This document shows positions 10,759 through 59,233 of a stretch of DNA of 64,000 nt, piece by piece. The DNA is taken from positions 58,118 through 122,117 of the forward strand of contig JAGBMX010000137.1 of NCBI GenBank assembly GCA_017634675.1. Direction: 5' to 3'. Each line of letters starts with the position of its first letter. Position 1 is the first letter of the stretch. The position numbers and the translations under genes were made by a program. Below the pieces are notes generated by a model. It ran no database searches and was not told where the DNA came from. It saw nothing but the letters and a program-made list of their open reading frames with translations. The DNA is from Selenomonadaceae bacterium. Its GTDB lineage: Bacteria > Bacillota > Negativicutes > Selenomonadales > Selenomonadaceae.

Positions 10759-10898
10759 ACAGCATCCCCTTTAGGGTAGAAATTACTTTATAAAGCTATG
10801 TTCTGATTGTACAAGATGAACCCAAAATTGTCAAGCTAAGCTAGAGAATTCACGCTAATTAGGTTAAAATTAATTTTATTTTGGATGGAGGAATTTTT

Positions 10899-11507
10899 AT
10901 GAAAAAGGGAACTACTTATGGTTACATTCGAGTGTCAACCGTTATGCAACATGATGACCGTCAAAGAGTCGCTATGAGGGAATTTGGCGTTGAATCTAAA
11001 TTTATATTTGCTGATAAACAAAGCGGCAAAGATTTTAATCGTCCGGCATATAAAAAACTAATGAAAAAACTCTCCGCCGGAGATGTTTTGGTGATTCAAA
11101 GCTTAGATAGGCTTGGTCGGGATTATAACGATATTTTGGAGCAATGGCGTATTATTACCAAGAAAAAACGAGCTTACATCGTAGTCTTAAATATGCCTAT
11201 TTTGGATACGAGAGTAAAAATAGCCGGTGATCTCACAGGTACTCTTATCTCTGATCTTGTACTCCAACTTCTTTCTTATGTGGCGCAGATGGAACGGGAG
11301 ATGAATCTTAGGCGCACGCTGGAGGGAATAGCGGCGGCGAAGGCGAGAGGTGTAAAGTTTGGACGAAGACCCATGGAACGCCCGAAAATTTATGAGACGA
11401 TTCGCCTGCGTTGGGAAGCCGGCGAATTATCGGCGCGTGAAGCTGCAAAACACATAGGAATAGCGCCTTCTACTTTTAGACGATGGGTGAAAACAGGCGA
11501 GCGATAA
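10899..11507 (+). CDS. serine recombinase (resolvase/invertase family)
   Basis: YGYIRVSTVMQHDDRQ (catalytic Ser), LVIQSLDRLGRDY, and a C-terminal HTH (AAKHIGIAPSTFRRW). GGAGG RBS precedes ATG 10899. Confidence 0.9.
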   Translation: MKKGTTYGYIRVSTVMQHDDRQRVAMREFGVESKFIFADKQSGKDFNRPAYKKLMKKLSAGDVLVIQSLDRLGRDYNDILEQWRIITKKKRAYIVVLNMPILDTRVKIAGDLTGTLISDLVLQLLSYVAQMEREMNLRRTLEGIAAAKARGVKFGRRPMERPKIYETIRLRWEAGELSAREAAKHIGIAPSTFRRWVKTGER

Positions 11508-11519
11508 ACCATGGTTTAT
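11504..11519. repeat. perfect 16-bp palindrome ATAAACCATGGTTTAT overlapping the recombinase stop codon
   Basis: Read directly. A second copy of GCGATAAACCATGG lies at 11595-11608. Confidence 0.8.
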
Positions 11520-11652
11520 GACCCGGCAATAAATAAAAAAAAATGGCAGGAAATTTGCGTTTTTTAGCGAAAATAATTTGTATAAAGTAGGTGGGCGATA
11601 AACCATGGGTTGCCGCCCACCCTGAATCGTAGAGTCTAAAGGAGCGGTTAAC

Positions 11653-12606
11653 ATGGCAAAAGAATTGCGTATGGAAAGAAAAGTTGTATTTACAGAGCGT
11701 CCTCCATTTCCTGAAAATATGCTTGTAGAACTTACTAACAAATGTAACCATCAATGTATTTTCTGTCACTATCGTCTTATGAGCCGTAAAAAAGCGGATT
11801 GTAATCGAGAATTTACCTTTGATATCATAAAACAAGCCTATGACAACGGTACGCGCGAGATTGGGTTTTATATGATAGGCGAGCCTTTTTTGAAGCGGGA
11901 TTTGGAGGAATACATTGCTTACGCCCATAATCTTGGTTTTACATACATTTATCTAACCACCAACGGCGCTTTGGCTACCTTAGAGCGCACCGTTAAATGT
12001 ATTGAGGCGGGATTAAACAGTATCAAATTCTCCATAAACGCCGCCACTACTGAGCATTACATACAAATACACGGGCACGACGATTATGAAACTGTAAAAA
12101 CAAATGTTCGCAATCTTAGCGAATATGTAAGAAAAAATAATATAGATCTTTCAATGTTTATCACTTTCGTAAAAACTAATATTACGTTAGATGATTTTGA
12201 TTTGTTGCTGGCGGATTTTTCATCCTTTGTTGACAAAATATACGAATGCGACTGCAACTCTCAAGGAACGCCTATAATCGAATTGATCAATAACGGTATT
12301 GTAAATCCTTTAATATACTTAAAAGAAAACCAAGAGCTATGCCAGATGGTTTTTAATCGCTTACATATAACTAGCGAAGGTTATTTAAACGCCTGTTGCG
12401 CAGATGCTGAAGGGCTTTTGAGCGCCGTTGATTTGCATGAAGTTTCACTAAAGGAAGCTTGGCATTCGGATATTATGGTTAATTTGCGTCGGCAATTTCT
12501 TAACAATACACTTAGTAAAGATGTTCTTTGCTATAACTGCTTACATAAAGAGCAACATAAGGTAAAGCCCTTAAACGAAGCGCTTTGGTCATCGAATGGA
12601 CGCTAA
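11653..12606 (+). CDS. radical SAM enzyme with C-terminal SPASM/twitch-like Cys cluster
   Basis: CNHQCIFC (CX3CX2C) lies near the N-terminus. The C-terminal Cys-rich region contains CDCNSQG, GYLNACCADAEG and CYNCLH. Confidence 0.85.
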   Translation: MAKELRMERKVVFTERPPFPENMLVELTNKCNHQCIFCHYRLMSRKKADCNREFTFDIIKQAYDNGTREIGFYMIGEPFLKRDLEEYIAYAHNLGFTYIYLTTNGALATLERTVKCIEAGLNSIKFSINAATTEHYIQIHGHDDYETVKTNVRNLSEYVRKNNIDLSMFITFVKTNITLDDFDLLLADFSSFVDKIYECDCNSQGTPIIELINNGIVNPLIYLKENQELCQMVFNRLHITSEGYLNACCADAEGLLSAVDLHEVSLKEAWHSDIMVNLRRQFLNNTLSKDVLCYNCLHKEQHKVKPLNEALWSSNGR

Positions 12607-12615
12607 TTATAAAAA

Positions 12616-14634
12616 ATGAGTCGTAATGTAGGAGGTTTACTGAAATTGAAAGAGTATAATATTGAAATACCGAAGTTTACAGCGCTTGAGAAAAAGCTTC
12701 AACAAGAGTCTGACTTTTTTAACTATATGAAGCTCTTGACAGAGGTTTTAACCCAGTATGTACTTATAATTACCGTTAGCGACACGCCTTCAGGTCCTAT
12801 GTTTACATCTGCTCATGCAAACGCTATGATGAGCGCACTTGGACTTGAAATGAATATGATGAATGCTTTTCGTATGCCTTATGTAGCAGTTATAGATCAT
12901 GGTAAGCTTGCGTATGAAAGCACGTCAAAAGGACGTGAGGAGCCTGTAATTGTGAATGGCAATTTAGGAGAACATACTCTTAGTATATATAGCGGAGGCC
13001 TTGACTGTAATCTTAATTTGGGGTTTGGATGTAATGCGCTAATCACCATAGATGGTACACATTATTTTGGAGACTTGGGATATAATTTTTTTCTATATAA
13101 CGTTAAAGATGACTATATTGCTGATATGTGCGTCTACGGAGCTTGGTATAATAGTGATGAACGTACGTTACACAGACCAACTTCCATTATAAAAGAGTTT
13201 ATCGCAAATTTAAATACCGGGGGGGGTATGCTTTGCTTTATGCATACACCTGTATTTACACCTTTATCAATGCGTTCAGAGCAGGAGAATCTTATTATTA
13301 ATTCAAAGTTTGGTTATAACATGATGTCTGATAAAAATGTTTTACAAAATATATGGAATAATAAAATTTTTCACTTCGTAAATGACTTTGACACCGAAGA
13401 AGATTTGCTCGAAGCTATAACGCCTCCAGACGCTTATGAGGATATTGATGGAATAATGAAGTTCAAAGACCATAAATCAAATGCGGTAAATACAAAAAAT
13501 GGAATACGGGTAACGACGGATCAACCGCAAAATCCCCAAAGAGCCATATATATTTTTGGTCCTTGCACAACTTTTGGAATAGGCGCAAAAGATAGTTATA
13601 CGATAGCGTCGTGTTTGCAGAGAAAATTAAACGAGTATTTGCCGGAGGAAAAATTCATAGTATATAATTATGGATTTTATATAAATGGCATAGGTGACGC
13701 TCAAGAACGACTCATAGCGATAATGAAATCATTGCCGATACAAAAAAACGATATTATTTTATTTGCGCAAAACGCTCCTTTTTACGGTATCCCATTTTGT
13801 GACTTAACCGAAAAATCAAAACGACCACATAATTACGGCGATATTTTTTTGGATAGCGGACATTTTACAGCTAACGGTAATCGTATGATAGCCGACGGTA
13901 TTTTTGATTTTTTAAAAAAATATGATTTTTTCAAAGATACGAAAATGAACATTACCAATGCTGGAGATTTAGGCGAAATAACTATTTTTGAAAATCACGA
14001 GAACGAACTTTTGACGATGTATAAATGTAAACTTAAAAATTTTTTCAAAACAAATATCTCTCCAAAAGTCGGTGCAATTGTTATGAACGCAAACCCTTTT
14101 ACATACGGACATCGCGCCTTGGTGGACGAAGCTTTGAAAAAATGCGATTACTTGATAGTTTTTGTCGTTGAAGAGGATAAATCCGATATACCTTTTAAAG
14201 ATAGGATTATGCTTGTAAGAGAAAATCTAAAAACGGAGTCCCGAGTTTTTATAATGCCTAGCGGAGAATTTATAATTTCCGGCAAGACTTTTAGCGAATA
14301 TTTCAGAAAAGAGAGTTTACAAGAGCAAAAAATAGATACTTCAAAAGATGTAATTCTTTTCGCAAAAGAAATTGCGCCATGCCTTAACATAAGCATTCGT
14401 TTTGCCGGCGAAGAGCCTACTGACAAAATTACGAGGCAATATAATGAGGATATGGCAAAAATTTTGCCTATGTATGGCATTGAGTTTATGGAGATAAAGC
14501 GAAAGATTACCGATGAAGGGGAAGTAATAAGCGCATCTACGGTAAGGAAACTTGTTAGAGCGTGCGAGTATGAGAAGTTAGAAACACTTGTTCCTCCCGT
14601 TACATTTGAGTATTTAAAGAGAAAATATTTGTAG
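12616..14634 (+). CDS. large multidomain protein: unknown N-terminal region, SGNH-like middle region, C-terminal CitC-type (citrate-lyase-ligase-like) adenylyltransferase domain
   Basis: The C-terminus has GAIVMNANPFTYGHRALVDEALKKCDYLIVFVVEEDKSDIPFKDR (NPFTxGH nucleotidyltransferase motif as in CitC). The middle has IYIFGPCTTFG ... DSGHFTANGNRMIA (SGNH block I/V-like, with Cys in place of Ser). An in-frame G8 sits at 13219-13226. An alternative TTG start at 12646 has an AGGAGG RBS. Confidence 0.7.
   Translation: MSRNVGGLLKLKEYNIEIPKFTALEKKLQQESDFFNYMKLLTEVLTQYVLIITVSDTPSGPMFTSAHANAMMSALGLEMNMMNAFRMPYVAVIDHGKLAYESTSKGREEPVIVNGNLGEHTLSIYSGGLDCNLNLGFGCNALITIDGTHYFGDLGYNFFLYNVKDDYIADMCVYGAWYNSDERTLHRPTSIIKEFIANLNTGGGMLCFMHTPVFTPLSMRSEQENLIINSKFGYNMMSDKNVLQNIWNNKIFHFVNDFDTEEDLLEAITPPDAYEDIDGIMKFKDHKSNAVNTKNGIRVTTDQPQNPQRAIYIFGPCTTFGIGAKDSYTIASCLQRKLNEYLPEEKFIVYNYGFYINGIGDAQERLIAIMKSLPIQKNDIILFAQNAPFYGIPFCDLTEKSKRPHNYGDIFLDSGHFTANGNRMIADGIFDFLKKYDFFKDTKMNITNAGDLGEITIFENHENELLTMYKCKLKNFFKTNISPKVGAIVMNANPFTYGHRALVDEALKKCDYLIVFVVEEDKSDIPFKDRIMLVRENLKTESRVFIMPSGEFIISGKTFSEYFRKESLQEQKIDTSKDVILFAKEIAPCLNISIRFAGEEPTDKITRQYNEDMAKILPMYGIEFMEIKRKITDEGEVISASTVRKLVRACEYEKLETLVPPVTFEYLKRKYL
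13219..13226 (+). repeat. poly-G tract, G8 (in frame, in the 672-aa gene)
   Basis: Counted directly from the sequence. Confidence 0.95.
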
Positions 14635-14664: not shown

Positions 14665-14891
14665 CCTGTCTGTAGACTTATTGTCGTTGTTTCCAATTTA
14701 AGAGGATACTCCCCCCGCCCCCCCTCTAGGAGGGGGGCTTTTATGTGGTTCATTCTTAGATAAGTGCCACAAAAGCAACAGTCAGAGAGCCTCCCTCTCA
14801 GAGGAAGGTGCCCGAAGAGCGGAGGGGTCGACCATGAAGAGCGCTATTTTTATTTTTGTACTACATGTGAATAGTAACAATACTTATTGTA
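14665..14891 (+). repeat. MITE-like element, family H, copy A (approximate ends)
   Basis: Shares the core CAGAGAGCCTCCC...GGTGCCCGAAG.GC.GAGGGGT.GACCATGAAGAGC and GTGAATAGTAAC with copies at 17949-18212 and, inverted, 44730-44965. Confidence 0.65.
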
Positions 14892-14923: not shown

Positions 14924-15002
14924 ATGGGGGTCCAGAGGGGCGAAGCTCCTTTGGCGGGTCAAGGGCAGCGCCCTTGTGGGGTTTGGGGCAAAGCCCCAAA
15001 AA
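14924..15002 (-). repeat. GC-rich triple-hairpin repeat, family G, copy 1 (inverted)
   Basis: The reverse complement aligns with 48388-48466 and 49682-49761. Confidence 0.75.
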
Positions 15003-15080: not shown

Positions 15081-15108
15081 TGTAACACTTTTCATTTTCA
15101 GGCGTATA
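15081..15108 (+). promoter_or_regulatory. ECF-type promoter of P1: TGTAAC-N16-CGTATA
   Basis: TGTAAC at 15081-15086, a 16-nt spacer, and CGTATAAAG starting at 15103. It is part of a roughly 100-bp module repeated at P2 and P9. Confidence 0.6.
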
Positions 15109-15167
15109 AAGATACAGAAAGAAAAAAATAAAAGCCTTTAGGCAAACAATTTGAAAGGATGATTGTA

Positions 15168-15500
15168 ATGAAACTTAATAAGGAAAACAAACTAAGCAAT
15201 GATGAACTTGAACAGGTAGCCGGAGGTCATTGTGGGAATAGTTATAAAGATATGCAGCGAGCGTACGACAGGCAAATGCCGGGCTTTGAAAACATGGATC
15301 CCTCAAATATAGCTACGATGGTATATTGCCTCAAAAACTGGGATAAAGTGGTGGGAGAGCTAAAAAATATGTTCGCCCAATACGGAATCGAAATGACTTA
15401 CAAAAGCGACCCCTTAGAAGACAATCTTTATATGTACCAAGGCAGGCGGATTACCGACGGTCAAGCGTGGCAAATCCTCGACAGCCAAAGAAACCCCTGA
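15168..15500 (+). CDS. GG-leader cargo protein P1 (subfamily A)
   Basis: MKLNKENKLSNDELEQVAGG leader, then a 90-aa hydrophilic domain (HCGNSYKDM...YMYQGRRITDGQAWQILDSQRNP). RBS GAAAGGA and an ECF-type promoter lie upstream. Confidence 0.8.
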   Translation: MKLNKENKLSNDELEQVAGGHCGNSYKDMQRAYDRQMPGFENMDPSNIATMVYCLKNWDKVVGELKNMFAQYGIEMTYKSDPLEDNLYMYQGRRITDGQAWQILDSQRNP

Positions 15501-15542
15501 TTCCCATGAGTATCACGCTCATTAAAATTTTTTCAAAAATTA

Positions 15543-15570
15543 TGTAACACTTTTCATTTTCAATCGTATA
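15543..15570 (+). promoter_or_regulatory. ECF-type promoter of P2: TGTAAC-N16-CGTATA
   Basis: Same motif and spacing as for P1. Confidence 0.6.
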
Positions 15571-15629
15571 AAGATACAGAAAGAAAAAAATAAAAGCCTT
15601 TAGGCAAACAATTTGAAAGGATGATTGTA

Positions 15630-15974
15630 ATGAAACTTAATAAGGAAAACAAACTAAGCAGTGAGGAACTTGAGCAGGTAGTCGGAGGAAACGCTGGCGA
15701 AACTGCGCTTGAATCGGAATTTTTGCGAGACCTTGGATATAATATTCAAGAAATGGGTTTCTTTCACATGGAGCTTAATTGGGAAGAAGGGTCGGCTAAA
15801 GTCAGGGATGGATGGGCGCATTTCGGCGTAGATTGTCATACCGCCAGGTCGGTAAAAAACGAATATTACATCGACGGCAAGAGAGTTTCCAGGCGCCAGG
15901 CATTTCAGCATGCGGCATATAAAGCCGGAAAACCGTGGATCTATGATGATGATTATTCTAAATGCGCACTCTGA
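15630..15974 (+). CDS. GG-leader cargo protein P2 (subfamily B, divergent)
   Basis: MKLNKENKLSSEELEQVVGG leader. The 5' module is near-identical to P1. The core has ESEFLRDLGYN...GWAHFGVD...NEYYIDGKRVSRRQAFQHA. Confidence 0.8.
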   Translation: MKLNKENKLSSEELEQVVGGNAGETALESEFLRDLGYNIQEMGFFHMELNWEEGSAKVRDGWAHFGVDCHTARSVKNEYYIDGKRVSRRQAFQHAAYKAGKPWIYDDDYSKCAL

Positions 15975-16035
15975 TATAAAATGATAGGTTTACCCCCGAA
16001 ACATACGAAAAGAGATTTTTTCAAAAATTATGTAA

Positions 16036-16124
16036 GGCAACCTCTAAAAATTGCCTAATTTCCTTGATGTCTCCCCGCCCCTTCGGGGCGGGGAGACATC
16101 AAAAATAAGTTTTTAGAAGTGCCC
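16036..16124 (+). repeat. repeat element, family K, copy 1 (inserted in the P3 promoter module)
   Basis: Aligns along its length with 21923-22010. It contains the hairpin GATGTCTCCCCGCCCC-TTCG-GGGCGGGGAGACATC. Confidence 0.7.
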
Positions 16125-16151
16125 GTAACAATTTCCGTTTTCAGTCGTATA
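16124..16151 (+). promoter_or_regulatory. ECF-type promoter of P3-P4: CGTAAC-N16-CGTATA
   Basis: Same spacing. The -35 element abuts an inserted repeat element (16036-16124). Confidence 0.55.
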
Positions 16152-16203
16152 AAAATACAGAAATAAAACGTCTGAGGGCGAACGACACGAAAGGATGATT
16201 GTA

Positions 16204-16560
16204 ATGCAACTCGATAAAGAACACAAACTGAACGATGAGGAACTTGAGCAAGTATCGGGAGGATGCGACTATGAAACATCCGATGACAGCAAATTTTTGA
16301 ATGTTTTGCTCAGTGGAACCGATTATCATCGTTGCGATCGCTACGGCAAATTTAAAATTTTTTGGGGGAGCAGCAAACGTTACGGTCCATGTGAAGATAT
16401 CGAGAATTCTTGGAGGGTGCTTGGCATTGAGATGGTCCCTTACGCCTCTGATCGTAATGAATACTGGATGAACGGCAAACTACTTACGAGGGGCGAGGCT
16501 TGGGCCCATGCGGAGAAATTAGTGGGCAAGCACTTGGAACGCGCAGATTGGGACTGGTAA
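16204..16560 (+). CDS. GG-leader cargo protein P3 (subfamily B)
   Basis: MQLDKEHKLNDEELEQVSGG leader. The core has DDSKFLNVLL...RYG...WRVLGIEM...NEYWMNGKLLTRGEAWAHAEKLVGKHLERADWDW. Confidence 0.8.
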   Translation: MQLDKEHKLNDEELEQVSGGCDYETSDDSKFLNVLLSGTDYHRCDRYGKFKIFWGSSKRYGPCEDIENSWRVLGIEMVPYASDRNEYWMNGKLLTRGEAWAHAEKLVGKHLERADWDW

Positions 16561-16604
16561 CGTAAAAAGAAAAAAAGAACGTCTAAGAAAGGATAGTGAT
16601 TTAA

Positions 16605-16937
16605 ATGCCGAATTTTGAATATGCAAAACTCACCGATGATGAACTTGAGCAGGTAGCCGGAGGTCATTGCGGGGATAGTTATAAAGATATGCGTCAAGCG
16701 TACGAGAGGAAAATGCCGGGCTTTGAAAAACTGGATCCCGAGAGCCTGGATACGATGGTGTATTGTTTAAAAAACTGGGATAAAGTGGTGGGAGATCTAA
16801 AAAATATGTTCGCCCAATACGGAATCGAAATGACTTACAAAAGCGACCCATTAGAAGACAATCTCTATATGTACCAAGGCAGGCGCATTACTAACGGTCA
16901 AGCGTGGCAAATCCTCGACAGCCAAAGAAACCCCTGA
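16605..16937 (+). CDS. GG-leader cargo protein P4 (subfamily A; close paralogue of P1)
   Basis: MPNFEYAKLTDDELEQVAGG leader. By hand count the core differs from P1 at about 13 of 90 positions. It starts 44 nt after P3, so it is probably co-transcribed. Confidence 0.8.
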   Translation: MPNFEYAKLTDDELEQVAGGHCGDSYKDMRQAYERKMPGFEKLDPESLDTMVYCLKNWDKVVGDLKNMFAQYGIEMTYKSDPLEDNLYMYQGRRITNGQAWQILDSQRNP

Positions 16938-16998
16938 TTTCCATGAGTATGGTAGGTTTATCACTCAAACATACGAAAGAAAATTTTTAAAAAAAACA

Positions 16999-17026
16999 TG
17001 CAACATTTTTTGTTTTTTCTGAATAT
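16999..17026 (+). promoter_or_regulatory. ECF-type promoter of P5-P6: TGCAAC-N16-GAATAT
   Basis: Variant of the same motif, followed by the conserved AAAGCCTTTAGGCAA 5'-UTR box. Confidence 0.5.
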
Positions 17027-17086
17027 AAAGTACAGCAAGAATGAACGAAAGCCTTTAGGCAATGAGAAATCAAGGAGATGTTGAAA

Positions 17087-17461
17087 ATGGCAAAACGCGA
17101 AGAAATTCTCAAAAAAATTAATCTTGAACTTAATAAGTTGAGCGATGAAGAACTTGAACAAGTGGCGGGCGGCAATGCGGAGCAAACGTCAAATGACAGT
17201 CGCTTTCTTAACAGCTTGAACGGCTCGACAGACCGTTACGGCCCGGAACGTATCGCGTGGTCGTTTGGAATTCATAATGCGGAAATTGAAAAAGGTTGGG
17301 CGACAGTCGGAATAAAAGCAACAGTCTATTTCGCTTGCGGCGGTTTCGGCAAAAGCAACAGATATTATCTTAACGGCCGAGAAATCTCGCAGGAAGAGGC
17401 GCGTCAGCACGCAATGGAAGTCACTCAGCACTATATGACGGAAAAAGATTGGAAATGGTAA
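17087..17461 (+). CDS. GG-leader cargo protein P5 (subfamily B)
   Basis: MAKREEILKKINLELNKLSDEELEQVAGG leader. The core has NDSRFLNSLNGSTDRYG...GWATVGIK...NRYYLNGREISQEEARQHAMEVTQHYMTEKDWKW. AAGGAG RBS lies 10 nt upstream; the ORF track starts at 17078. Confidence 0.8.
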   Translation: MAKREEILKKINLELNKLSDEELEQVAGGNAEQTSNDSRFLNSLNGSTDRYGPERIAWSFGIHNAEIEKGWATVGIKATVYFACGGFGKSNRYYLNGREISQEEARQHAMEVTQHYMTEKDWKW

Positions 17462-17500
17462 AAAATTTTGCAACTATGTGAAATAGAGGAGATGTTTAAA

Positions 17501-17839
17501 ATGGTACAGAATATAGAGATGAACAAATTAAACGATAGCCAGCTTGAAAATGTTGCGGGCGGTTGCAGCTATGAGTCGTTTGAATTATTCCACGCTTTAA
17601 GAGGCAACAATGCCTTTCAGAAAGATTATCCCGGTCTTTTTGCTCCTCCGGTGAACCAGGAGGTTAAGATAGACGATAACATTATGGAGAAAGCGCTCTT
17701 GGAAAAGATGGGAATTAAGGCGCAGATTAATTGGGGGCCTGACGAATGGTTCGATTGCAATAAGTATGTGTCTGCAGACACCGGCAAGAGATTGTATCAT
17801 GATGATGTTATAAAAGCCATAAAGAATTACAAAGGTTAA
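17501..17839 (+). CDS. GG-leader cargo protein P6 (divergent)
   Basis: MVQNIEMNKLNDSQLENVAGG leader followed by a divergent 92-aa core. It starts 39 nt after P5 and is followed by a strong terminator. Confidence 0.7.
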   Translation: MVQNIEMNKLNDSQLENVAGGCSYESFELFHALRGNNAFQKDYPGLFAPPVNQEVKIDDNIMEKALLEKMGIKAQINWGPDEWFDCNKYVSADTGKRLYHDDVIKAIKNYKG

Positions 17840-17867
17840 AAAATTACCTTTTGTTGCTGAAACATAT

Positions 17868-17926
17868 AAGAGCCGATAGCTTGGTGACTAAGACCACAAG
17901 CTACCGGCTCTTGTACCGTTTTTCAC
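17868..17926 (+). terminator. rho-independent terminator after P6
   Basis: AAGAGCCGATAGCTTGGTG ... CACAAGCTACCGGCTCTT followed by a T-rich tail. Confidence 0.75.
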
Positions 17927-17948
17927 AGCATCATTTCCACAACGAATA

Positions 17949-18212
17949 GCACGGAGAGTGACTATTCACGGGTAATACAACATAGTGGTGCGAAAGGTGA
18001 ATTGGTGCCGTTCACGGTCGACCTCTCCACCGCTTCGCGGTCCCCCTCCCCTTTCAGGGGAGGCAATGTGAAGGTGACTTTTCTATTATATATCCACAAA
18101 ATGAGAAATCAGAGAGCCTCCCCTGAAAGGGGAGGTGCCCGAAGGGCAGAGGGGTTGACCATGAAGAGCAATATTTTCCTTTTTTTACTACCCGTGAATA
18201 GTAACCACGGAG
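17949..18212 (+). repeat. MITE-like element, family H, copy B (long imperfect inverted-repeat arms)
   Basis: The left end ...ACTATTCACGGG pairs with the right end CCCGTGAATAGTAAC. The internal arms (GTCGACCTCTCC...CCCCTTTCAGGGGAGGC versus GCCTCCCCTGAAAGGGGAGG...GGTTGAC) are also complementary. Confidence 0.7.
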
Positions 18213-18481
18213 AAGATTATTAGGTTAAATCGCCCCATCAATCATCTCCGTACTTTTTGTTTTGTCTGCCTTCTTGAAACCGCAATTATCCTGTTCACGC
18301 ATTGGATTCTTTCATTATTTTATATCGTCATAACCTTGTCACCAAATATTTTCTCAAATTGGTTTAAATTTTTATTCAACTTTCCCAGGACAAAACAGGC
18401 AGTAAATCCTTTATGGGATGCGCATTGCCGTTGATTAATACGAACTGCCATGAGGACTTTTACGCCATGGAGGCTGTGTTA

Positions 18482-18775
18482 TGACAAATTGCCGCTTTTG
18501 GCAATTTTGACGCCGAAAGACAGCGTTTGCTTTTTGGTCTTAAAAAGTGTGAGGATATTTGCGACGGGCGACTTTCGTTTTATTGCCAAAAAGTTAATCC
18601 GAATGAACGACCTAAGATTTATCGCGCTATTGACAAAGCGTTGGATATTGTGAGCAAAGAGCTGAACGAATTGAATGTCGAGGGCAATGGAGAAGCGGAA
18701 ATTTTCATGTCGTTTGCGGGCAAAAGTATTGCCGAAAGAATAGGCGAAGCGATGGACTGCGCTTCGTTAGGATGA
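18482..18775 (+). pseudogene. possible gene remnant (no proper start; upstream part in another frame)
   Basis: The open frame ...AAFGNFDAERQRLLFGLKKCEDICDGRLSFYCQKV...AMDCASLG has no ATG or RBS near its beginning. An upstream fragment (MGCALPLINTNCHEDFYAMEAVL) is in a different frame. A terminator follows. Confidence 0.25.
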
Positions 18776-18799
18776 CAAAAAATGTCGTAAAATAAATAA

Positions 18800-18855
18800 A
18801 CAAAAGCTACATTTCACAAATTATGATATGCTGAAATGTAGCTTTTGTTTTAAAT
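18800..18855 (+). terminator. rho-independent terminator
   Basis: ACAAAAGCTACATTTCA ... TGAAATGTAGCTTTTGT followed by TTTTAAATTTT. Confidence 0.75.
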
Positions 18856-19343
18856 TTTATCCGCATAATGCTTACGCTCTTCTTGAGGAAAAAATCGTTT
18901 AAAAAAAGGATTATAACTATAAGACGGCGAATTTTTAGAAGTCAGATATATATTAACTTAGATATATACTAAATTTATTTGAGCGAAAGTTCACTTAAAC
19001 GACGGCGTCGGAAATTCCGATTTGAACTTTAACAATAAATGAATCTTTGAAGGGGAATTGAAGCGTTGAAAATTCAGCGCGACCAGCGCTTGGTGCAACA
19101 GGGCTGGCTGTCAGTTCGAGTGCTACCGCCAAAATCTTGTCAATGCCGAAAAACAGGTGAAGGTTGCCAAATCTACGCTGGCAAGCATTGTGGGACTGTC
19201 CCAAGACACGGATGTGAAGCCGTCGGACATAAAAGCAATGGGGGTGCCGGTTGCCACGGACGCTTTGCGCTATGTCGCAACGGAAAAAGAAGGAGCCACG
19301 GCAGAACAGGCGCTGAAAGCCTCGCAAATGGAGAAGAATCCGG

Positions 19344-20009
19344 ATGAACATAAAGATTATTACAAGCGGTAAAAAACGGACGGATCCTTGGGGACAGCTG
19401 GCGGTAAAAGCCATTCATGATGAACAGGCATTTACGGAGCTTTACGAATATTTTTTCCCAAGGGTCTATCAATATCTGCTGAAAAAAACACAGGACAGCC
19501 ATCTCGCAGACGAAATGGTGGAGAGCGCCTTTGTCCGTATGTATCAGCACTTATCTCAGTACGTCCCGGAGAAAGGCGCCTTTTCCACATGGCTGTTCCG
19601 CATTGCCCAAAACGTATTGAATAAGCATTACGGCAGCAAGGCAGTGACTATGCATACGGCTTGGGAGGAAACTTTCGATCCCGCCGCGCCGGAGAAAGAA
19701 ACTCCGGAGGAGCAAGCACTTACCAAAGAACGCAGCAGGGAGTTGCGCGACGCCATAATGAAATTGCCACCTCGCCAGCGTCAGATATTGGAGATGACCT
19801 ACTGGCTTGATATGAAGTCTGCGGACATAGCCGAACAGATGGGCATGGCTCCCAGTTCCGTCAGAGTAGCCTTAAAGCAGGCAAGGGACGCGCTGCGGAA
19901 ACTTTTTGCGAAAAAAATTGCAGTCTATGGGGGAGGCGATAAAAAACGCGACTTGCGTAATGGTGGCGCACAGACTAAATACCATAAAAAAAGCGGATAT
20001 TATTTATGA
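19344..20009 (+). CDS. ECF-type sigma-70 family RNA polymerase sigma factor
   Basis: Region 2: FTELYEYFFPRVYQYLLKKTQDSHLADEMVESAFVRMYQHL...FSTWLFRIAQNV. Region 4: LPPRQRQILEMTYWLDMKSADIAEQMGMAPSSVRVALKQARDALRKL. Confidence 0.85.
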   Translation: MNIKIITSGKKRTDPWGQLAVKAIHDEQAFTELYEYFFPRVYQYLLKKTQDSHLADEMVESAFVRMYQHLSQYVPEKGAFSTWLFRIAQNVLNKHYGSKAVTMHTAWEETFDPAAPEKETPEEQALTKERSRELRDAIMKLPPRQRQILEMTYWLDMKSADIAEQMGMAPSSVRVALKQARDALRKLFAKKIAVYGGGDKKRDLRNGGAQTKYHKKSGYYL

Positions 20010-20118
20010 AATCAAAGACGGAGCAGTCATTCGGTACGATAGCTTTGAAGAATTTGAAAAAACTAGGAATATAGCATGATATACCTTGTAAAAAAAAAGA
20101 AAAAATTTAAAAAAAAAT

Positions 20119-20146
20119 CATAACAGTTTGCTGCCTTCGAGGATAT
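20119..20146 (+). promoter_or_regulatory. weaker copy of the array promoter ahead of ORF 20172-P7: CATAAC-N16-GGATAT(AAAG)
   Basis: Motif and spacing similar to the other copies. Confidence 0.35.
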
Positions 20147-20171
20147 AAAGAATGAAGAGAGGTGATAGAGA

Positions 20172-20435
20172 ATGAGGAACGAAACGTTAGAACAGGAATT
20201 GAGCGCGTTCGACTTTTCCCTCTGTCATCCCGTTCGTACGCACTTACTTAATAAGCTGCTCACTATCCACAGGGCAGACAACGTTGCTACGGAGCAGCCT
20301 AGTCGTAAATGGACATTCGCCCGTCTGGACGATAAGGAACTGAACTGGGTTGTAGCTGCGGGCAGCGTCGGAAATTTGCAAAACTCTGAAGAATGGAAAG
20401 AAAGGGTGACGGATCATGTCATTAAAAGAAAGTAA
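20172..20435 (+). CDS. 87-aa hypothetical protein with an internal leader-like motif (LDDKELNWVVAAG)
   Basis: RBS AGAGGTGA. The 3' end overlaps the P7 start by 20 nt. A weaker copy of the array promoter lies upstream. Confidence 0.5.
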   Translation: MRNETLEQELSAFDFSLCHPVRTHLLNKLLTIHRADNVATEQPSRKWTFARLDDKELNWVVAAGSVGNLQNSEEWKERVTDHVIKRK

Positions 20436-20754
20436 AAAATTGAGTGTTGAAGATCTTGAGGGTGTGTCTGGCGGTACGATTATCGAAACGGTGGCTGACA
20501 GCGTAGAGCTTTACAAGCGTGGTCTGTTGAACAAAGAATACGATGGTTGCGCGGCCGTCCGGGACAAGTTGCATGGCATGGGCTATAGCGGCTATGTGGA
20601 TATGGGCGGCATAGCCAAAGGCAATATTTATACGGATAAGGATGGCAACACGATTACACGTCAGCAATTCTGGAAAAACTTCGATGCGGAAAACGGCACT
20701 AAGATTATCCGCAGCAGCCAGTATGATGGTTTAAAAGACGCTTTGGGGATGTAA
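20416..20754 (+). CDS. GG-leader cargo protein P7 (divergent)
   Basis: MSLKESKKLSVEDLEGVSGG leader. The core ends in ...NIYTDKDGNTITRQQFWKNF..., matching the family C-terminal motif. A terminator follows. Confidence 0.7.
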   Translation: MSLKESKKLSVEDLEGVSGGTIIETVADSVELYKRGLLNKEYDGCAAVRDKLHGMGYSGYVDMGGIAKGNIYTDKDGNTITRQQFWKNFDAENGTKIIRSSQYDGLKDALGM

Positions 20755-20767
20755 TGCTCAGATTATA

Positions 20768-20815
20768 AAAAGGGTCCTGTTGATGCCGAAAAGCATCAGC
20801 AGGACCCTTTTTTTC
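20768..20815 (+). terminator. rho-independent terminator after P7
   Basis: AAGGGTCCTGTTGATGC ... GCATCAGCAGGACCCTT followed by TTTTTT. Confidence 0.85.
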
Positions 20816-20879
20816 GGGAATTGGGTAATTTGTTTGCCGCCAAAGTAATATTCTCTGTCATTGCCATCTCTGCCAAATA

Positions 20880-20935
20880 AAAAAATGGGCTGTCGCAAGA
20901 AGTAATTTACCAATTCTTGCGACAGCCCATTTTTG
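20880..20935 (-). terminator. rho-independent terminator after P8
   Basis: ATGGGCTGTCGCAAGAA ... TTCTTGCGACAGCCCAT, flanked by A and T runs. Confidence 0.8.
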
Positions 20936-20945
20936 TATCGCCTTA

Positions 20946-21299
20946 CTAATGCCAATCATTATATGACATATAATGACCGGTGACTTCCATGGCGTGTTGA
21001 CGCGCCTGTTCGTGTGAGATGGGCGTGATATTTCCGCCGTCAATGAGCACATATTGAATTTTCGTATCATAATCCGTAGGGTCACCGGGGCAAATAATGC
21101 CTACTCCAAGTTTTGCCCATGCATTTTCAATGATTAAAAGTCGATCCTTGGAGTTATGTATTTTCCATGCGCCATAACGATCCGTCGAACCGTTCAACGA
21201 GTTCAAAAAACGGCTGTCATCCGCCAAGTCGTAAGCGCTTCCCCCTACAACCTGCTCCAATTCCTCATCGTTCAGCTTTTCATTTTCATGATTTTTCAT
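20946..21299 (-). CDS. GG-leader cargo protein P8 (subfamily B)
   Basis: MKNHENEKLNDEELEQVVGG leader. The core has DDSRFLNSLNGSTDRYGAWK...NAWAKLGVG...EQARQHAMEVTGHYMSYNDWH. AGGAG RBS is present. The ORF-track N-terminal extension to 21431 overlaps P9 and was rejected. Confidence 0.8.
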   Translation of the reverse strand: MKNHENEKLNDEELEQVVGGSAYDLADDSRFLNSLNGSTDRYGAWKIHNSKDRLLIIENAWAKLGVGIICPGDPTDYDTKIQYVLIDGGNITPISHEQARQHAMEVTGHYMSYNDWH

Positions 21300-21370
21300 T
21301 TTAATAGCTCCTTTTTTACTTTTGATTTCACATAAGCGCTTAGCGCGAAACACCGTTTCGCAGGTCGTTG

Positions 21371-21700
21371 TCACCAATCCCAATCCGCGCGCTTCAAGTG
21401 CTTGCCCACCACTTGCTCCGCGTGTAGCCACGCTTCATCTCGGGAGACCTGTCTGCCATTGATACGATAACTGTAATCGAAGTTATCTCCAGTGCACTCA
21501 AATTCGACGCCCACCGATGCCCATGCTCTCCTTATTTCGTCCTTGTGACCTTTGACTGTCCAAGCGCCATATCTCCCGCATTGTCCCTCGTGCCCTCGAA
21601 GCAGCACATTCAAGAATCTCGAATCCTGGTCGAGTTGACCGCCGCCGACAACCTGCTCCAGTTCATCATTGGTGAGTTTGTCTTCCTTATTGAGTTCCAT
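21371..21700 (-). CDS. GG-leader cargo protein P9 (subfamily B)
   Basis: MELNKEDKLTNDELEQVVGG leader. The core has QDSRFLNVLLRG...RYGAW...AWASVGVEF...YSYRINGRQVSRDEAWLHAEQVVGKHLKRADWDW. The same 5' promoter module as P1/P2 is present in inverted orientation. Confidence 0.8.
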   Translation of the reverse strand: MELNKEDKLTNDELEQVVGGGQLDQDSRFLNVLLRGHEGQCGRYGAWTVKGHKDEIRRAWASVGVEFECTGDNFDYSYRINGRQVSRDEAWLHAEQVVGKHLKRADWDW

Positions 21701-21758
21701 TTCAATAATCCTTTCACATTGTTCGCCTAAAGGCTTTTATTTTTTCTTTCTGTATCTT

Positions 21759-21786
21759 TATACGCTTGAAATCGAAAGATGTTACA
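21759..21786 (-). promoter_or_regulatory. ECF-type promoter of P9-P8: TGTAAC-N16-CGTATA (minus strand)
   Basis: The reverse complement of 21701-21800 matches the P1/P2 5' module almost base for base. Confidence 0.6.
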
Positions 21787-44729: not shown

Positions 44730-44965
44730 AGGTTTTTGGGTCAGATTGTAGATAAATCAATAAAATTACAATAAAAATTGTGCTTTTCATGGTGCTCCTT
44801 CCGCCTTTCTGGCACCTTCCTCTGATATAGAGGCGCTATGATTGTTGCTTTTGCGCCTTTATTTTCAGCTTGAGCTAAAAGAAAGCCCTGTCCCAGAGGA
44901 GGGTAGGGGAGTGTCCCCTGAAGATAGGTGGAAATGGAAAGTAACAACAGTGATTCTGCATTCTG
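44730..44965 (-). repeat. MITE-like element, family H, copy C, inserted in the terminator of the carboxyltransferase gene
   Basis: Flanked by the 14-bp direct repeat TCTCGAGAACTGAT at 44716-44729 and 44966-44979. The core matches family H in inverted orientation. Confidence 0.7.
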
Positions 44966-48382: not shown

Positions 48383-48387
48383 GATGT

Positions 48388-48466
48388 TGGGACTCCGTCC
48401 CAAACCCTGCAAGGGGCGCTGCCCCTTGACCCCGCCAAAGGGCATTGCCCTCTGGACTCCCGGGTA
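48388..48466 (+). repeat. GC-rich triple-hairpin repeat, family G, copy 2
   Basis: GGGACTCCGTCCC / AAGGGGCGCTGCCCCTT / GGGCATTGCCC. Confidence 0.75.
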
Positions 48467-49681: not shown

Positions 49682-49761
49682 TTGGGACTTCGTCCCAAAC
49701 CCTACAAGGGGCGCTGCCCCTTGACCCCGCCAAAGGGCATTCGCCCTCTGGACACCTGGGT
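49682..49761 (+). repeat. GC-rich triple-hairpin repeat, family G, copy 3
   Basis: Near-identical to copy 2. Confidence 0.75.
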
Positions 49762-57994: not shown

Positions 57995-59233
57995 TTATGC
58001 TGTTGCTTTCTTCAAAGCTTTATTTATCTTTTCCGCCATACCTTTGATTTTTGCAATGGGTACGGAGCAAACTGCAACTCTTACGCCCAACTTCAACGGC
58101 ACGGCATAAATCAAATCCTCATGCAAAATATCGCAAACTTTCCCCGGATCATTTGCGGGTACCGACAAGAAGAATCCACCGGTATAAGGAAGCGCAGCAA
58201 GCCCCGCCTCTTTTGCCTCTTTCATAAAAAGATCGCCTCTTGCCTGAATTAAGGCGTGAGCTTCTTCCCTGTCCTTTTCAAATGCGGCAAAAACTTCTTT
58301 ATCATTTTGTATGCGAAGCAAAAGTTCCATAGCTCCGCGATTTATATTGCTCCAAGCGGCTCTGCTTGAATACTTCATTACATCGTTAAATTCGTCGATA
58401 ACGCTTTTGCTGGAACTTGCCGCAACCAACGCTCCTGTGCGCTGACCATAGAACGTATACCCTTTAGACATACTGAAAGAAAACAGCGCCAAGATATTTT
58501 CCGGTAAGTCTCCGAATTTTTTCATAAATCTACGCACTGCGTTCTTTTCTCCAGCATAATCAATATAAGCTATATCCACAAGTATAGTAACTTTTTTTCC
58601 GTTTTTGGCGTAGGTTTTAAACAAGTCTATAATTTTGTCCCAATCGGCTTCCGTCAATTGGAAACCGGTGGGATTATGCGCCGGTGTATTTAATATTACC
58701 AAAAGCGACTCTTGTGTTATATATATATCCTCAACCTTACCTTTAAACGAATCAAAGTTAAAATTTCTGTTCTCGTCAAACAGCGTGAAATTCTCCAGAT
58801 TTGCTCCGTGTTCACGACAAATCACATTATATGTGCCCCAGTACCAATCAGAAGTAAGAACCTTCTCGCCTATTTCGGAATAATTCATTATGGCATGATG
58901 AATTGCGCCCGTACCACCCGCCGTTGCTACCGCAGAAGTATAGGCGTTCGGCTTTTGTTCGAGAAAAGTCAATTCCTGAACAGCGTTAAGGTACTCGGGA
59001 ATTCCCGATATAGGCGCGTAAGCCGCTATCTTTTCAATGGGCATTTCCTTATATACCTTTTCCATTGTAGGTAAAGTTATAAGTTTTTCATTATCATCCA
59101 GCATAACGCCAATCGTAGCGTTGGTAACTTTATCTGCTCCAAACTTCTCCGCAGCTTCCTTGCAAGCCGCCGCCGCCCCAAATATCACATCGTTTAATTT
59201 TTTTCCCGCTGATTGCGTAGCCGCCATACTCAT
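57995..59233 (-). CDS. class I (AspC/TyrB-like) aminotransferase
   Basis: NPTG, and FSFSMSKGYTFYGQRTGAL (SxSK PLP lysine with YGxRxG). The start was chosen at the ATG 6 nt after GAGGTG. Confidence 0.8.
   Translation of the reverse strand: MSMAATQSAGKKLNDVIFGAAAACKEAAEKFGADKVTNATIGVMLDDNEKLITLPTMEKVYKEMPIEKIAAYAPISGIPEYLNAVQELTFLEQKPNAYTSAVATAGGTGAIHHAIMNYSEIGEKVLTSDWYWGTYNVICREHGANLENFTLFDENRNFNFDSFKGKVEDIYITQESLLVILNTPAHNPTGFQLTEADWDKIIDLFKTYAKNGKKVTILVDIAYIDYAGEKNAVRRFMKKFGDLPENILALFSFSMSKGYTFYGQRTGALVAASSSKSVIDEFNDVMKYSSRAAWSNINRGAMELLLRIQNDKEVFAAFEKDREEAHALIQARGDLFMKEAKEAGLAALPYTGGFFLSVPANDPGKVCDILHEDLIYAVPLKLGVRVAVCSVPIAKIKGMAEKINKALKKATA

Follow-up and report, generated by a model that had tools for sequence, protein, structure and literature searches.

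Nine paralogous double-glycine-leader genes of a Selenomonadaceae bacterium as probable, sigma-factor-controlled cargo of an NHLP/Nif11-type exporter deleted from their locus

The stretch analysed here, referred to throughout as the window, comprises 64,000 nucleotides of contig JAGBMX010000137.1 from a Selenomonadaceae bacterium (assembly GCA_017634675.1, positions 58,118 to 122,117), and its list of open reading frames (ORFs) contains nine intact paralogous genes, P1 to P9, whose products of 109-124 aa begin with a double-glycine (GG) leader. P1-P6 run head to tail at 15.2-17.8 kb, P7 lies at 20.4 kb, and P8 and P9 occupy the minus strand at 20.9-21.7 kb, as an earlier note on this DNA had described. 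We consider it probable that these genes, from a diderm bacterium of the rumen, encode the cargo of a C39-peptidase, type-I-like export system of the NHLP/Nif11 type ('NHLM') and that their expression is driven by an extracytoplasmic function (ECF) sigma factor. The exporter has been deleted from this locus; the bacteriocin-like role that we attach to the cargo is a guess.

Start codons were picked from the spacing of ribosome-binding sites and from homologue lengths. All nine leaders are 20-29 aa long and follow the pattern K-L-x-x-[DES]-[EQD]-L-E-x-V-x-G-G, in which the alignment shows no variation at K, L, L, E, V, G and G, and the hallmark residues of GG leaders, L(-12), [EQD]L(-8/-7), V(-4) and GG, are present in nine out of nine. 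A hidden Markov model (HMM) of 14 leader positions, built from the leaders of homologues and run on 1,148 six-frame segments of the window, places eight of the nine genes at ranks 1-8 (14-27 bits), with P7 as the next segment (5.4 bits) and the best unrelated segment at 3.9 bits. All nine therefore outscore the unrelated segments, and the leader reported in the earlier note is borne out for each of them. A regular-expression scan of the 64-kb window found no further family member.

No cargo protein exceeds the cut-off of the curated GG-leader models TIGR01847, PF03047 and PF10439: TIGR01847 matches seven of the nine at 12.8-15.1 bits (cut-off 15.7), and the ComC model gives 12.5-15.6 bits (cut-off 20.4). 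Because these models are very short, scores below their cut-offs weigh little. Nor do the cargo proteins show a long NHLP/N11P leader above the cut-offs of TIGR03793 and TIGR03798; P5 reaches 15.8 bits against TIGR03798 (cut-off 32.3), with only model positions 46-68 covered, and P6 reaches 12.1 bits against TIGR03793 (cut-off 50.9). Such scores under the curated cut-offs, with TIGR01847, ComC and similar models, are what speaks for a coincidental GG-like N-terminus on proteins that stay in the cytoplasm. We find that explanation hardly credible, given that, among cargo families with otherwise unrelated sequences, conservation is highest in the leader, that the genes recur in synteny with a catalytically intact peptidase-containing ABC transporter (PCAT), and that in one homologue, P0243 (154 aa), a hydrophobic N-terminal anchor or signal takes the place of the GG leader before a P9-like core, which supports an extracytoplasmic location of the core.

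The mature cores of P1-P9 are 89-98 aa long, with a grand average of hydropathy (GRAVY) of -0.54 to -0.95, a net charge of -1 to -5, 9-15 aromatic residues and 1-3 Cys, in agreement with the earlier description of a large, hydrophilic, aromatic-rich cargo. The motifs proposed for them (DS[KR]FLNxL, RYG, W..[LV]G[IV], Y..NG..I[ST]..[EQ]A..HA and DW[DK]W) hold for P3, P5, P8 and P9 and in part for the others. The proposal that subfamilies A and B share only the leader and the C-terminal motif has to be given up, as hhalign finds homology over the whole core (probability 98.5% over 96 columns, a score to which the leader contributes). Within subfamily A, P1 and P4 are 81% identical.

Pfam and NCBIfam searches with all nine proteins gave leader matches only, all below cut-off, and no match to a core. 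An AlphaFold2 model of P5 (62 sequences) shows a compact alpha/beta core with a pTM of 0.71; block means of pLDDT beyond residue 30 are mostly 81-97, with 67 in a single block, and the leader is of low confidence; on this confident model the cargo cores appear to be compact, folded alpha/beta domains. Foldseek returned no match for the model in PDB (best E 1.7) or BFVD (best E 0.65), and a sequence profile search of PDB gave no core match, only a weak leader match to the end of a Nif11-domain protein. The profile searches and structure prediction suggested in the earlier note thus yield no family match and a confident alpha/beta model, and the cargo fold, which it had not recognised, has no counterpart in Pfam, NCBIfam, PDB or BFVD.

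The family is large and unannotated. P5 has 249 homologues at E <= 1e-3 in a 90%-clustered database; the 120 listed are 107-130 aa long, and every named one is a 'hypothetical protein' from Selenomonadaceae or Quinella metagenome-assembled genomes (MAGs). For subfamily A the number of clusters is just ten. When 1.84 billion representatives were searched with a profile, 505 clusters at 50% identity emerged, nearly all of the 150 listed being stand-alone proteins of about 100-130 aa, and all names found for cluster members are 'hypothetical protein'. With one genome per GTDB species we found 50 family loci, nearly all from rumen Selenomonadaceae or Selenomonadales. Anaerovibrio lipolyticus DSM 3074, a cultured strain, is represented among them, as are Selenomonas ruminantium and Quinella through MAGs. 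Bins labelled Lachnospiraceae or Bacteroidales account for three loci, perhaps through errors of binning. The genes commonly stand in arrays, with as many as 8 GG-leader genes (regular-expression count), in unrelated housekeeping contexts, and most of the arrays in other genomes are distant from any exporter. They combine unrelated cargo types behind one leader, and a hairpin-helix motif, Y-x(2,3)-G-x-x-I-[ST]-x-x-[EQ]-A, is found in more distant cargo types of other loci as well.

S. ruminantium SIG239 (L051) and an Anaerovibrio MAG hold orthologues of P1, P2, P3, P8 and P9, at 69-85% amino acid identity where measured (P3 in L044, at 61%, is the exception), and the repertoire of the window is therefore typical of that group. 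For P2 the orthologues are those of SIG239 and Anaerovibrio sp. (L045), at 74-79% identity; P8 has orthologues in L051, L045 and L043, and P9 in L049, L051 and L044. Of 15 comparisons between a core and an orthologue, 13 give a dN/dS of 0.10-0.46, the remaining values being 0.00 and 0.85, and the cores of P1-P9 are constrained protein-coding genes under purifying selection. The segment from the P4 core through P5 (window 16626-17468) is about 95.5% identical at the nucleotide level to a pair of genes in MAG RGIG6591 (L007/L011) that sits between Sua5 and gatC. As a flanking housekeeping gene of RGIG6591 is only 80% identical to the window and the context differs, cassettes evidently move or recombine between loci.

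Other cargo types were seen alongside the family. In three rumen metagenome contigs (L068, L069 and L074) a sigma orthologue is directly followed by five GG-leader genes, with no ORF87 (see below) between them; the five cores are quite different, and several retain the Y..G..I[ST]..EA motif. Two further loci (L005 3958-5334 and L038 10225-11562) carry other cargo families with the same Nif11-like leader, MATREENLKKIN.ELE.L[ST]D[DE]EL[DE]QVAGG; one of these families reads 'SWYITEEQAK…GYLWNTGDYYWNG', and another is a Pro/Ile-rich tandem-repeat protein. In A. lipolyticus DSM 3074 (L043 342-1843), three small, Gly-rich, hydrophobic GG peptides (…CAFLGVGFGKT…ILGGSDGP…; leader M(N)LSEDELDQVAGG) share a locus with a P8-like family gene. 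Their leaders end in ELDQVAGG, the same motif as in the large cargo, so that presumably one common exporter serves both.

An exporter is indeed found beside family genes, though in related loci and not in the window. In a Selenomonadales MAG (L049), four family genes are followed by a resistance-nodulation-division (RND)-type adaptor, an NHLP/Nif11-type cassette, a TolC-family protein and an ECF sigma factor 65% identical to that of the window. The cassette exceeds the cut-offs of TIGR03794 (212 bits against 156), of TIGR03796 for the peptidase-ABC (948 against 853) and of TIGR03797 for the second ABC (722 against 709), and homologous TIGR03794/TIGR03796/TIGR03797 cassettes occur at seven loci besides this one. 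The same exporter genes stand beside family genes in L038, L039 (Quinella), L051 (S. ruminantium), L063 and L072, with gene sets that are complete or ended by the contig end, and in L061 and L065 the full cassette is followed by the sigma gene, no family gene being present in the available sequence. The PCAT peptidase domains retain QMEATECGAAAL ... NHFVVLEG ... NDP (Cys/His/Asp checked in L049, L039, L063 and L061), and the exporter includes an adaptor of the HlyD type. Phylogenetic profiling has tied this cassette to the GG-cleaved NHLP and N11P precursors (Haft et al., PMC2887384).

A 712-aa ABC protein near the P4/P5-like pair in L007/L011 was considered as a cognate PCAT and rejected as coincidental, because the Q…CG motif is missing from its N-terminal C39-like domain and because it is separated from the pair by two housekeeping genes. 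NCBIfam identifies it as an HlyB-type type I secretion ABC (741 bits, cut-off 725). With its HlyD adaptor (L007/L011 744-2882 and 1-747 of RGIG6591, 2.5 kb from the pair) it is probably a separate RTX-type system, easily mistaken for the cognate transporter.

What became of the exporter at the window locus can be read from its intact counterpart L063, retrieved from rumen metagenomes with the window sigma factor as query. Its gene order is P3-like cargo, the membrane-fusion adaptor MFP1, MFP2, PCAT, ABC2, TolC, sigma, ORF87 homologue and P7-like cargo; the P3 orthologue stands directly 5' of the intact exporter operon, and the sigma factor, at 82% amino acid identity to that of the window, overlaps the TolC stop. 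The window aligns to this locus in pieces (Table 1), from which it follows that some 8.5 kb of exporter were lost in several deletions, with sigma, ORF87 and P7 remaining collinear. The TolC scars span 19125..19343 (+), where an internal piece is fused to the 3' end and continues into the sigma gene, and residues 233-306 of the L049 TolC confirm the fragment by tblastn (52% identity, E 3e-13). Five exporter genes were thus once present at the window locus and are now scars of about 200 bp. The earlier note's statement that the window contains no exporter holds in that none is found, but it overlooked the degraded remnants at 19034-19343. The gap left by the deletion also contains an 82-aa ORF (MLFGLKKCEDICDGRLSFYCQKV…) at 18450-18775, with no family match and no homologue in the related loci.

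The sigma factor of the window scores 102.6 bits against TIGR02937 (cut-off 42.9), and its orthologues, at 61-83% amino acid identity, directly follow the TolC gene of the exporter operon wherever upstream sequence is available. Homology to the orthologues stops near 19918, and the last ~30 codons, by which the ORF exceeds its orthologues in length, run into foreign sequence. The ABC ATPase fragment that overlies this tail in another frame is not assignable to either exporter ABC, with only generic matches of 35-43% to ABC C-termini in the related loci. A second case of decay at such a locus is that of S. ruminantium SIG239 (L051 15696-17587), whose sigma orthologue breaks off at 152 aa and is separated from the exporter adaptors by a gene for a TnpB-like (IS200/IS605-type) transposase.

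With the exporter deleted here, export would need another copy of the cassette in the genome, unless the array has become an orphan only recently. Two cassettes are present on one contig (L064), which makes a second exporter elsewhere in the genome of the window plausible. The alternative is that the locus is a relic, whose nine genes are no longer secreted and are becoming pseudogenes in this genome. The reduction of the exporter operon to scars, the ABC fragment fused to the tail of the sigma ORF, the dispersed repeats flanking the six-gene run, and the related locus with a truncated sigma gene and a TnpB-like transposase gene just downstream are all in keeping with decay. We nevertheless regard a relic as improbable: the nine ORFs, sigma, ORF87 and six promoters are all intact, dN/dS against orthologues is well below 1, the arrays of other genomes are mostly far from exporters too, and the two cassettes of L064 count against it as well.

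The cargo genes are further united by their promoters. The sequence TGTAACA-N15-CGTATAAAG precedes P1, P2, P3 and P9, with degenerate versions before P5 and ORF87, so that the window has the TGTAAC-N16-CGTATAA type at four strict and two variant sites. No promoter of their own was found for P4, P6, P7 and P8, each of which closely follows or overlaps the gene upstream; P3 and P4, P5 and P6, and P8 and P9 are probably each on one transcript. Across 1.79 Mb of related loci plus the window, counting both strands, the strict form GTAAC-N15-17-CGTA occurs 78 times (about 20 expected from composition), and 56 of the 78 sites are found no more than 220 nt upstream of a GG-leader gene, 55 of them with a spacer of 16 nt. 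Quinella, Selenomonas and Anaerovibrio retain the two boxes but differ in the spacer sequence. The exporter operon itself is without the motif. In the window, an additional GTAAC-N17-CGTA at 58587-58612 (+), inside a minus-strand gene, is probably due to chance, and a generic scan for sigma-70 promoters and terminators stayed at background. An AAC/CGT architecture is typical of ECF promoters, and the motif is near the consensus of Bacillus subtilis SigW and SigX. From the co-location of gene and motif we infer that the locus sigma factor recognises the TGTAAC-N16-CGTATAA promoters.

Between sigma and P7 lies ORF87, the small partner of the sigma factor. About 12 loci can be assessed, and 8 of them have a homologue downstream of sigma. 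ORF87 has a variant promoter of its own, which is seen 5' of ORF87 homologues in eight loci other than the window, and P7-like genes come after the homologues in L062, L063 and L064 (70-74% amino acid identity, measured in L062 and L064). Alignments show a conserved N-terminal segment, LEQEL.FDFSLCHPVR..LL.KLL, and a leader-like RL[DE]x[DE]ELDW[VA]AAAG with an invariant A-A-G and a variable tail after it. No family match and no anti-sigma domain match were found, and the AlphaFold2 model is poor (pLDDT 54, too low for a fold search). The leader HMM scores three ORF87 homologues at 8-10 bits and one at about 5, the rest being near zero. ORF87 could act as an anti-sigma factor, or it could be a precursor with a long leader that yields a short exported peptide, or it could do both. 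A more specific scheme, which is a long shot, is that it is an anti-sigma factor with a leader look-alike (…ELDW[VA]AAAG, with Ala-Ala in place of the Gly-Gly of the cargo) and that release of sigma is coupled to the exporter. By binding, cutting or exporting ORF87, the peptidase domain of the exporter would free sigma only where a working exporter is present; transcription of the cargo regulon would then be tuned to export capacity, in an analogue of FlgM/sigma-28 built on a PCAT.

An arrangement that fits such a checkpoint occurs in the distant, high-GC locus L079 (7147-8577). The gene after its ECF sigma encodes a single protein of 229 aa, P0273, in which an N-terminal extension of ~120 aa precedes a GG leader (…EELEAAAGG) with a family core behind it; genes for a radical SAM protein and a TolC-like protein are found upstream. 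By eye the extension resembles ORF87, but homology is unsupported (hhalign probability 0.2%).

Table 1. Coordinates of the cargo genes, promoters, sigma-factor region, exporter remnants and putative terminators in the window
Feature	Position	Strand	Remarks
P1	15168..15500	+	110 aa; subfamily A; alternative start 15159; leader MKLNKENKLSNDELEQVAGG
P2	15630..15974	+	114 aa; alternative start 15621
P3	16204..16560	+	118 aa; alternative start 16195
P4	16605..16937	+	110 aa; subfamily A; 44 nt after P3, without own promoter
P5	17087..17461	+	124 aa; subfamily B; 29-aa Nif11-like leader
P6	17501..17839	+	112 aa; divergent; alternative starts 17492, 17468; leader HMM 14.1 bits
P7	20416..20754	+	112 aa; overlaps ORF87 end; conserved 'locus-core' cargo
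P8	20946..21299	-	117 aa; subfamily B
P9	21371..21700	-	109 aa
P1 promoter	15081..15111	+	ECF-type; TGTAACA-N15-CGTATAAAG
P2 promoter	15543..15573	+	ECF-type
P3-P4 promoter	16124..16154	+	ECF-type
P5-P6 promoter	17000..17029	+	degenerate ECF-type; GCAACA...GAATATAAA
ORF87-P7 promoter	20120..20150	+	variant; ATAACA-N16-GATATAAAG
P9-P8 promoter	21756..21786	-	ECF-type
ECF sigma factor	19344..20009	+	Sigma70_r2 (PF04542) and Sigma70_r4_2 (PF08281); regions 2 and 4 only
ORF87	20172..20435	+	87 aa; small partner of sigma; internal leader-like motif RLDDKELNWVVAAG, short variable tail
MFP1 start scar	19034-19072	+	blastn = L063 1330-1369
MFP1 internal scar	19075-19115	+	blastn = L063 1867-1907
TolC internal scar	19125-19230	+	106 nt; blastn = L063 9212-9317
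TolC 3' end and sigma	19231-19918	+	blastn = L063 9888-10575
Promoter, ORF87, P7	20086-20757		blastn = L063 11195-11899
ABC ATPase C-terminal fragment	19906..20079	+	…VAHRLNTIKKADIIYEIKDG…; 57 codons, other frame, over sigma ORF tail
Hairpin 3' of P6	17869..17911	+	read from the sequence; likely terminator of six-gene run
25-nt inverted repeat between convergent P7 and P8	20877..20938	.	96% complementary; likely bidirectional terminator

Taken together, these observations suggest the following scheme. The ECF sigma factor, encoded at the end of the exporter operon, would read the promoters before each cargo gene or gene pair, both here and in arrays scattered over the genome; exporter and sigma would be expressed together, and sigma would then activate all cargo genes. 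The 20-29 aa leader would dock in the C39 domain of the ABC transporter and be cut after Gly-Gly, and the core of ~10-11 kDa would be threaded through the conduit of ABC transporter, adaptor and TolC and fold outside as a small acidic alpha/beta domain. Export of P1-P9 by a GG route is well supported by synteny; leader cleavage and export as such, promoter recognition by sigma, and an extracellular function are what we infer.

Several points weigh against this scheme, or against the role attached to it. No ABC exporter was found in the 64-kb window, by Pfam on the neighbouring genes and by a motif scan. The promoter sequence also lends itself to a sigma-70-like reading, with GTAACA and TATAAA as a -35/-10 pair 17 nt apart, and Quinella, which has the promoters and the exporter, has no sigma gene after TolC in L039. 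No fold match in PDB or BFVD suggests an activity. The cores are acidic and hydrophilic, and selection on them is purifying, not diversifying. Finally, as already stated in the earlier note, there is no small hydrophobic immunity ORF in or between the genes: all hydrophobic ORFs at 14.7-22 kb are antisense to cargo or sigma genes, and the arrays at other loci hold cargo genes only, with no immunity gene apparent.

Our best guess at the extracellular role, held with somewhat less than even confidence, is that of a receptor-targeted, bacteriocin-like antagonist of related rumen bacteria. The type of exporter, the co-occurrence of classic GG peptides, the polymorphic arrays with cassette exchange, and a dense, competitive habitat speak for it. 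Immunity-free, receptor-targeted bacteriocins exist, for instance those of the lectin-like type. That the proteins are exported as proposed yet are not toxins, and serve the producer as components of its envelope or surface, as proteins for binding or scavenging, or as signals, we consider somewhat unlikely, in spite of much that agrees with it: the lack of immunity genes, the acidic, hydrophilic and confidently folded cores, the purifying selection, and the strong dedicated promoters on every gene. ECF sigma factors, moreover, usually govern envelope-related regulons. A further point in its favour is MAM, which is reported to be an abundant envelope protein carried by a PCAT (PMC12184118). 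On the other side, many paralogues per genome, in arrays of up to 8 GG-leader genes and with cassettes shuffled between loci, suit an arsenal better than a structural role; classic Gly-rich, bacteriocin-like peptides, with the same motif at the end of their leaders, occur at a locus of the family; and no fold known for ligand binding or for a structural role is recognised. Whatever the role, the earlier view of the locus as a polymorphic family of folded, GG-exported proteins rather than a conventional bacteriocin locus is supported by the confident model, purifying selection, exporter synteny and the lack of immunity genes.

The region upstream of the array (window 10881-14634) encodes a serine recombinase (resolvase), a radical SAM/SPASM protein and a 672-aa protein. 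A resolvase 55% identical to that of the window lies between exporter and cargo array in L038 (8608-9201). The radical SAM/SPASM protein (317 aa) matches no specific family above cut-off, and the 672-aa protein has a citrate-lyase-ligase C-terminal domain. Both genes (11653-14634) lie directly upstream of P1, and both were considered as cargo maturases and rejected, since neither has a homologue in the other ~70 family or sigma loci. Their position is a reason to think of peptides that are ribosomally synthesised and modified post-translationally (RiPPs), in which the radical SAM/SPASM enzyme and the ligase-like protein would modify the cores; GG leaders of the Nif11/NHLP kind, too, are usually found on RiPPs (PMC2887384). 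We think RiPP precursors very unlikely, because the upstream enzymes are found in no other family locus; in addition, the cores are 89-98 aa long, confidently folded and poor in Cys/Ser/Thr runs, and the radical SAM protein stays under every RiPP-maturase cut-off.

Two kinds of dispersed intergenic repeat occur in the window, one of ~112 nt (14767-14878, 18094-18205 and 44770-44922) and one of ~75 nt (14927-14999, 48387-48461 and 49682-49756). Copies of both are 72-84% identical and form GC-rich hairpins, for example CCTCCCCTTTCAGGGGAGG, and one copy lies on either side of P1-P6; they look like repetitive extragenic palindromic (REP) elements or miniature inverted-repeat transposable elements (MITEs) and could promote rearrangement. 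The whole locus is bracketed by a 104-nt inverted repeat, 87% complementary (15123-15226 against 21642-21745, also 15585-15688), which corresponds to the promoter-proximal region and leader of P1/P2 and of P9; a resolvase is encoded close by, and the 6.4-kb segment might conceivably invert. Rfam detects no RNA family in 10-23 kb, and the window contains no tRNA.

Export by a GG leader is usually equated with short bacteriocins, pheromones and RiPPs. The family described here consists of hundreds of unannotated clusters of ~10-kDa folded, acidic proteins on an NHLP/Nif11-type exporter in diderm Firmicutes abundant in the rumen, and it widens the view of what such exporters carry. Literature searches found no description of this cargo family, of its link to a tripartite NHLM cassette in Negativicutes, or of an ECF sigma factor with a per-gene promoter for such cargo. 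One ECF sigma factor and one promoter motif flag cargo genes genome-wide, which helps in annotating Selenomonadaceae MAGs, and A. lipolyticus DSM 3074 and S. ruminantium offer cultured entry points. Should the proteins be antagonists without immunity genes, they would be new narrow-spectrum agents shaping rumen communities that are tied to propionate and methane phenotypes; should ORF87 couple export to transcription, this would be a new regulatory principle.

Among the closest known systems is that of the NHLP/N11P precursors with their TIGR03794/TIGR03796/TIGR03797 export cassette (Haft, Basu & Mitchell 2010, PMC2887384). Shared features are the same three-gene exporter, above equivalog cut-offs in the related loci, the GG cleavage motif, the resemblance of the last ~23 cargo leader residues to the end of the Nif11 leader, large paralogous expansions, and precursor genes that are often distant from the exporter. 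In contrast, the cargo leader is 20-29 aa here and ~70-83 aa in NHLP/N11P, and what follows is a folded, hydrophilic core of 89-98 aa instead of a ~26-aa peptide rich in Cys/Ser/Thr/Gly. There is no linked modification enzyme here, the upstream radical SAM gene not being conserved with the family; the operon has an additional adaptor and a TolC gene; and an ECF sigma factor is dedicated to the system, each cargo gene having a conserved promoter. In its working, the system is like NHLP/N11P or class II microcin export. With no long homologous leader and no short modifiable core, the family does not belong to NHLP/N11P.

Class II microcins of the MccV type, from Gram-negative bacteria (PMC12219008, PMC10233263), resemble this system in their diderm producer, in export by PCAT, adaptor and TolC (all three components are present in the related loci here), and in a GG signal of 15-20 aa on unmodified mature products of up to ~90 aa. 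They differ in being Gly/Ala-rich and hydrophobic, whereas the cargo cores are acidic and aromatic-rich, and in having an adjacent membrane immunity gene, which is lacking here. Selenomonadaceae are diderm. The cargo proteins are not class II microcins, as they have no immunity gene and their composition differs.

Larger cargo of PCATs is also on record. MAM of Faecalibacterium duncaniae is reported to be a PCAT-processed envelope protein with a GG-type leader on a cargo of >100 aa (PMC12184118), so that the cargo of a PCAT is not necessarily a short toxin. MAM is reported as a single, highly abundant envelope protein and not a multi-paralog array, and the abstract on it mentions no sigma-factor control, whereas an ECF sigma factor is present here. 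PCAT1 of Clostridium thermocellum and its ~90-aa substrate CtA (PMC6959990, PMC8794836) offer a template for the mechanism, in that the leader is bound by the C39 domain and cleaved behind GG, and the transmembrane domains form the path along which the cargo is threaded; that system has a single transporter, and the present one is tripartite. Given such precedents, together with the class II microcins, a size of ~90-115 aa for GG-leader cargo is in itself less unusual than the earlier note held. We know of no ECF regulon reported for PCAT1. A dedicated ECF sigma factor is found with the HasA hemophore (HasI/HasS), likewise a small secreted protein with a type I exporter; HasA has an uncleaved C-terminal signal and is a single cargo, and its sigma factor, unlike the one described here, responds to cell-surface signalling through a TonB-dependent receptor.

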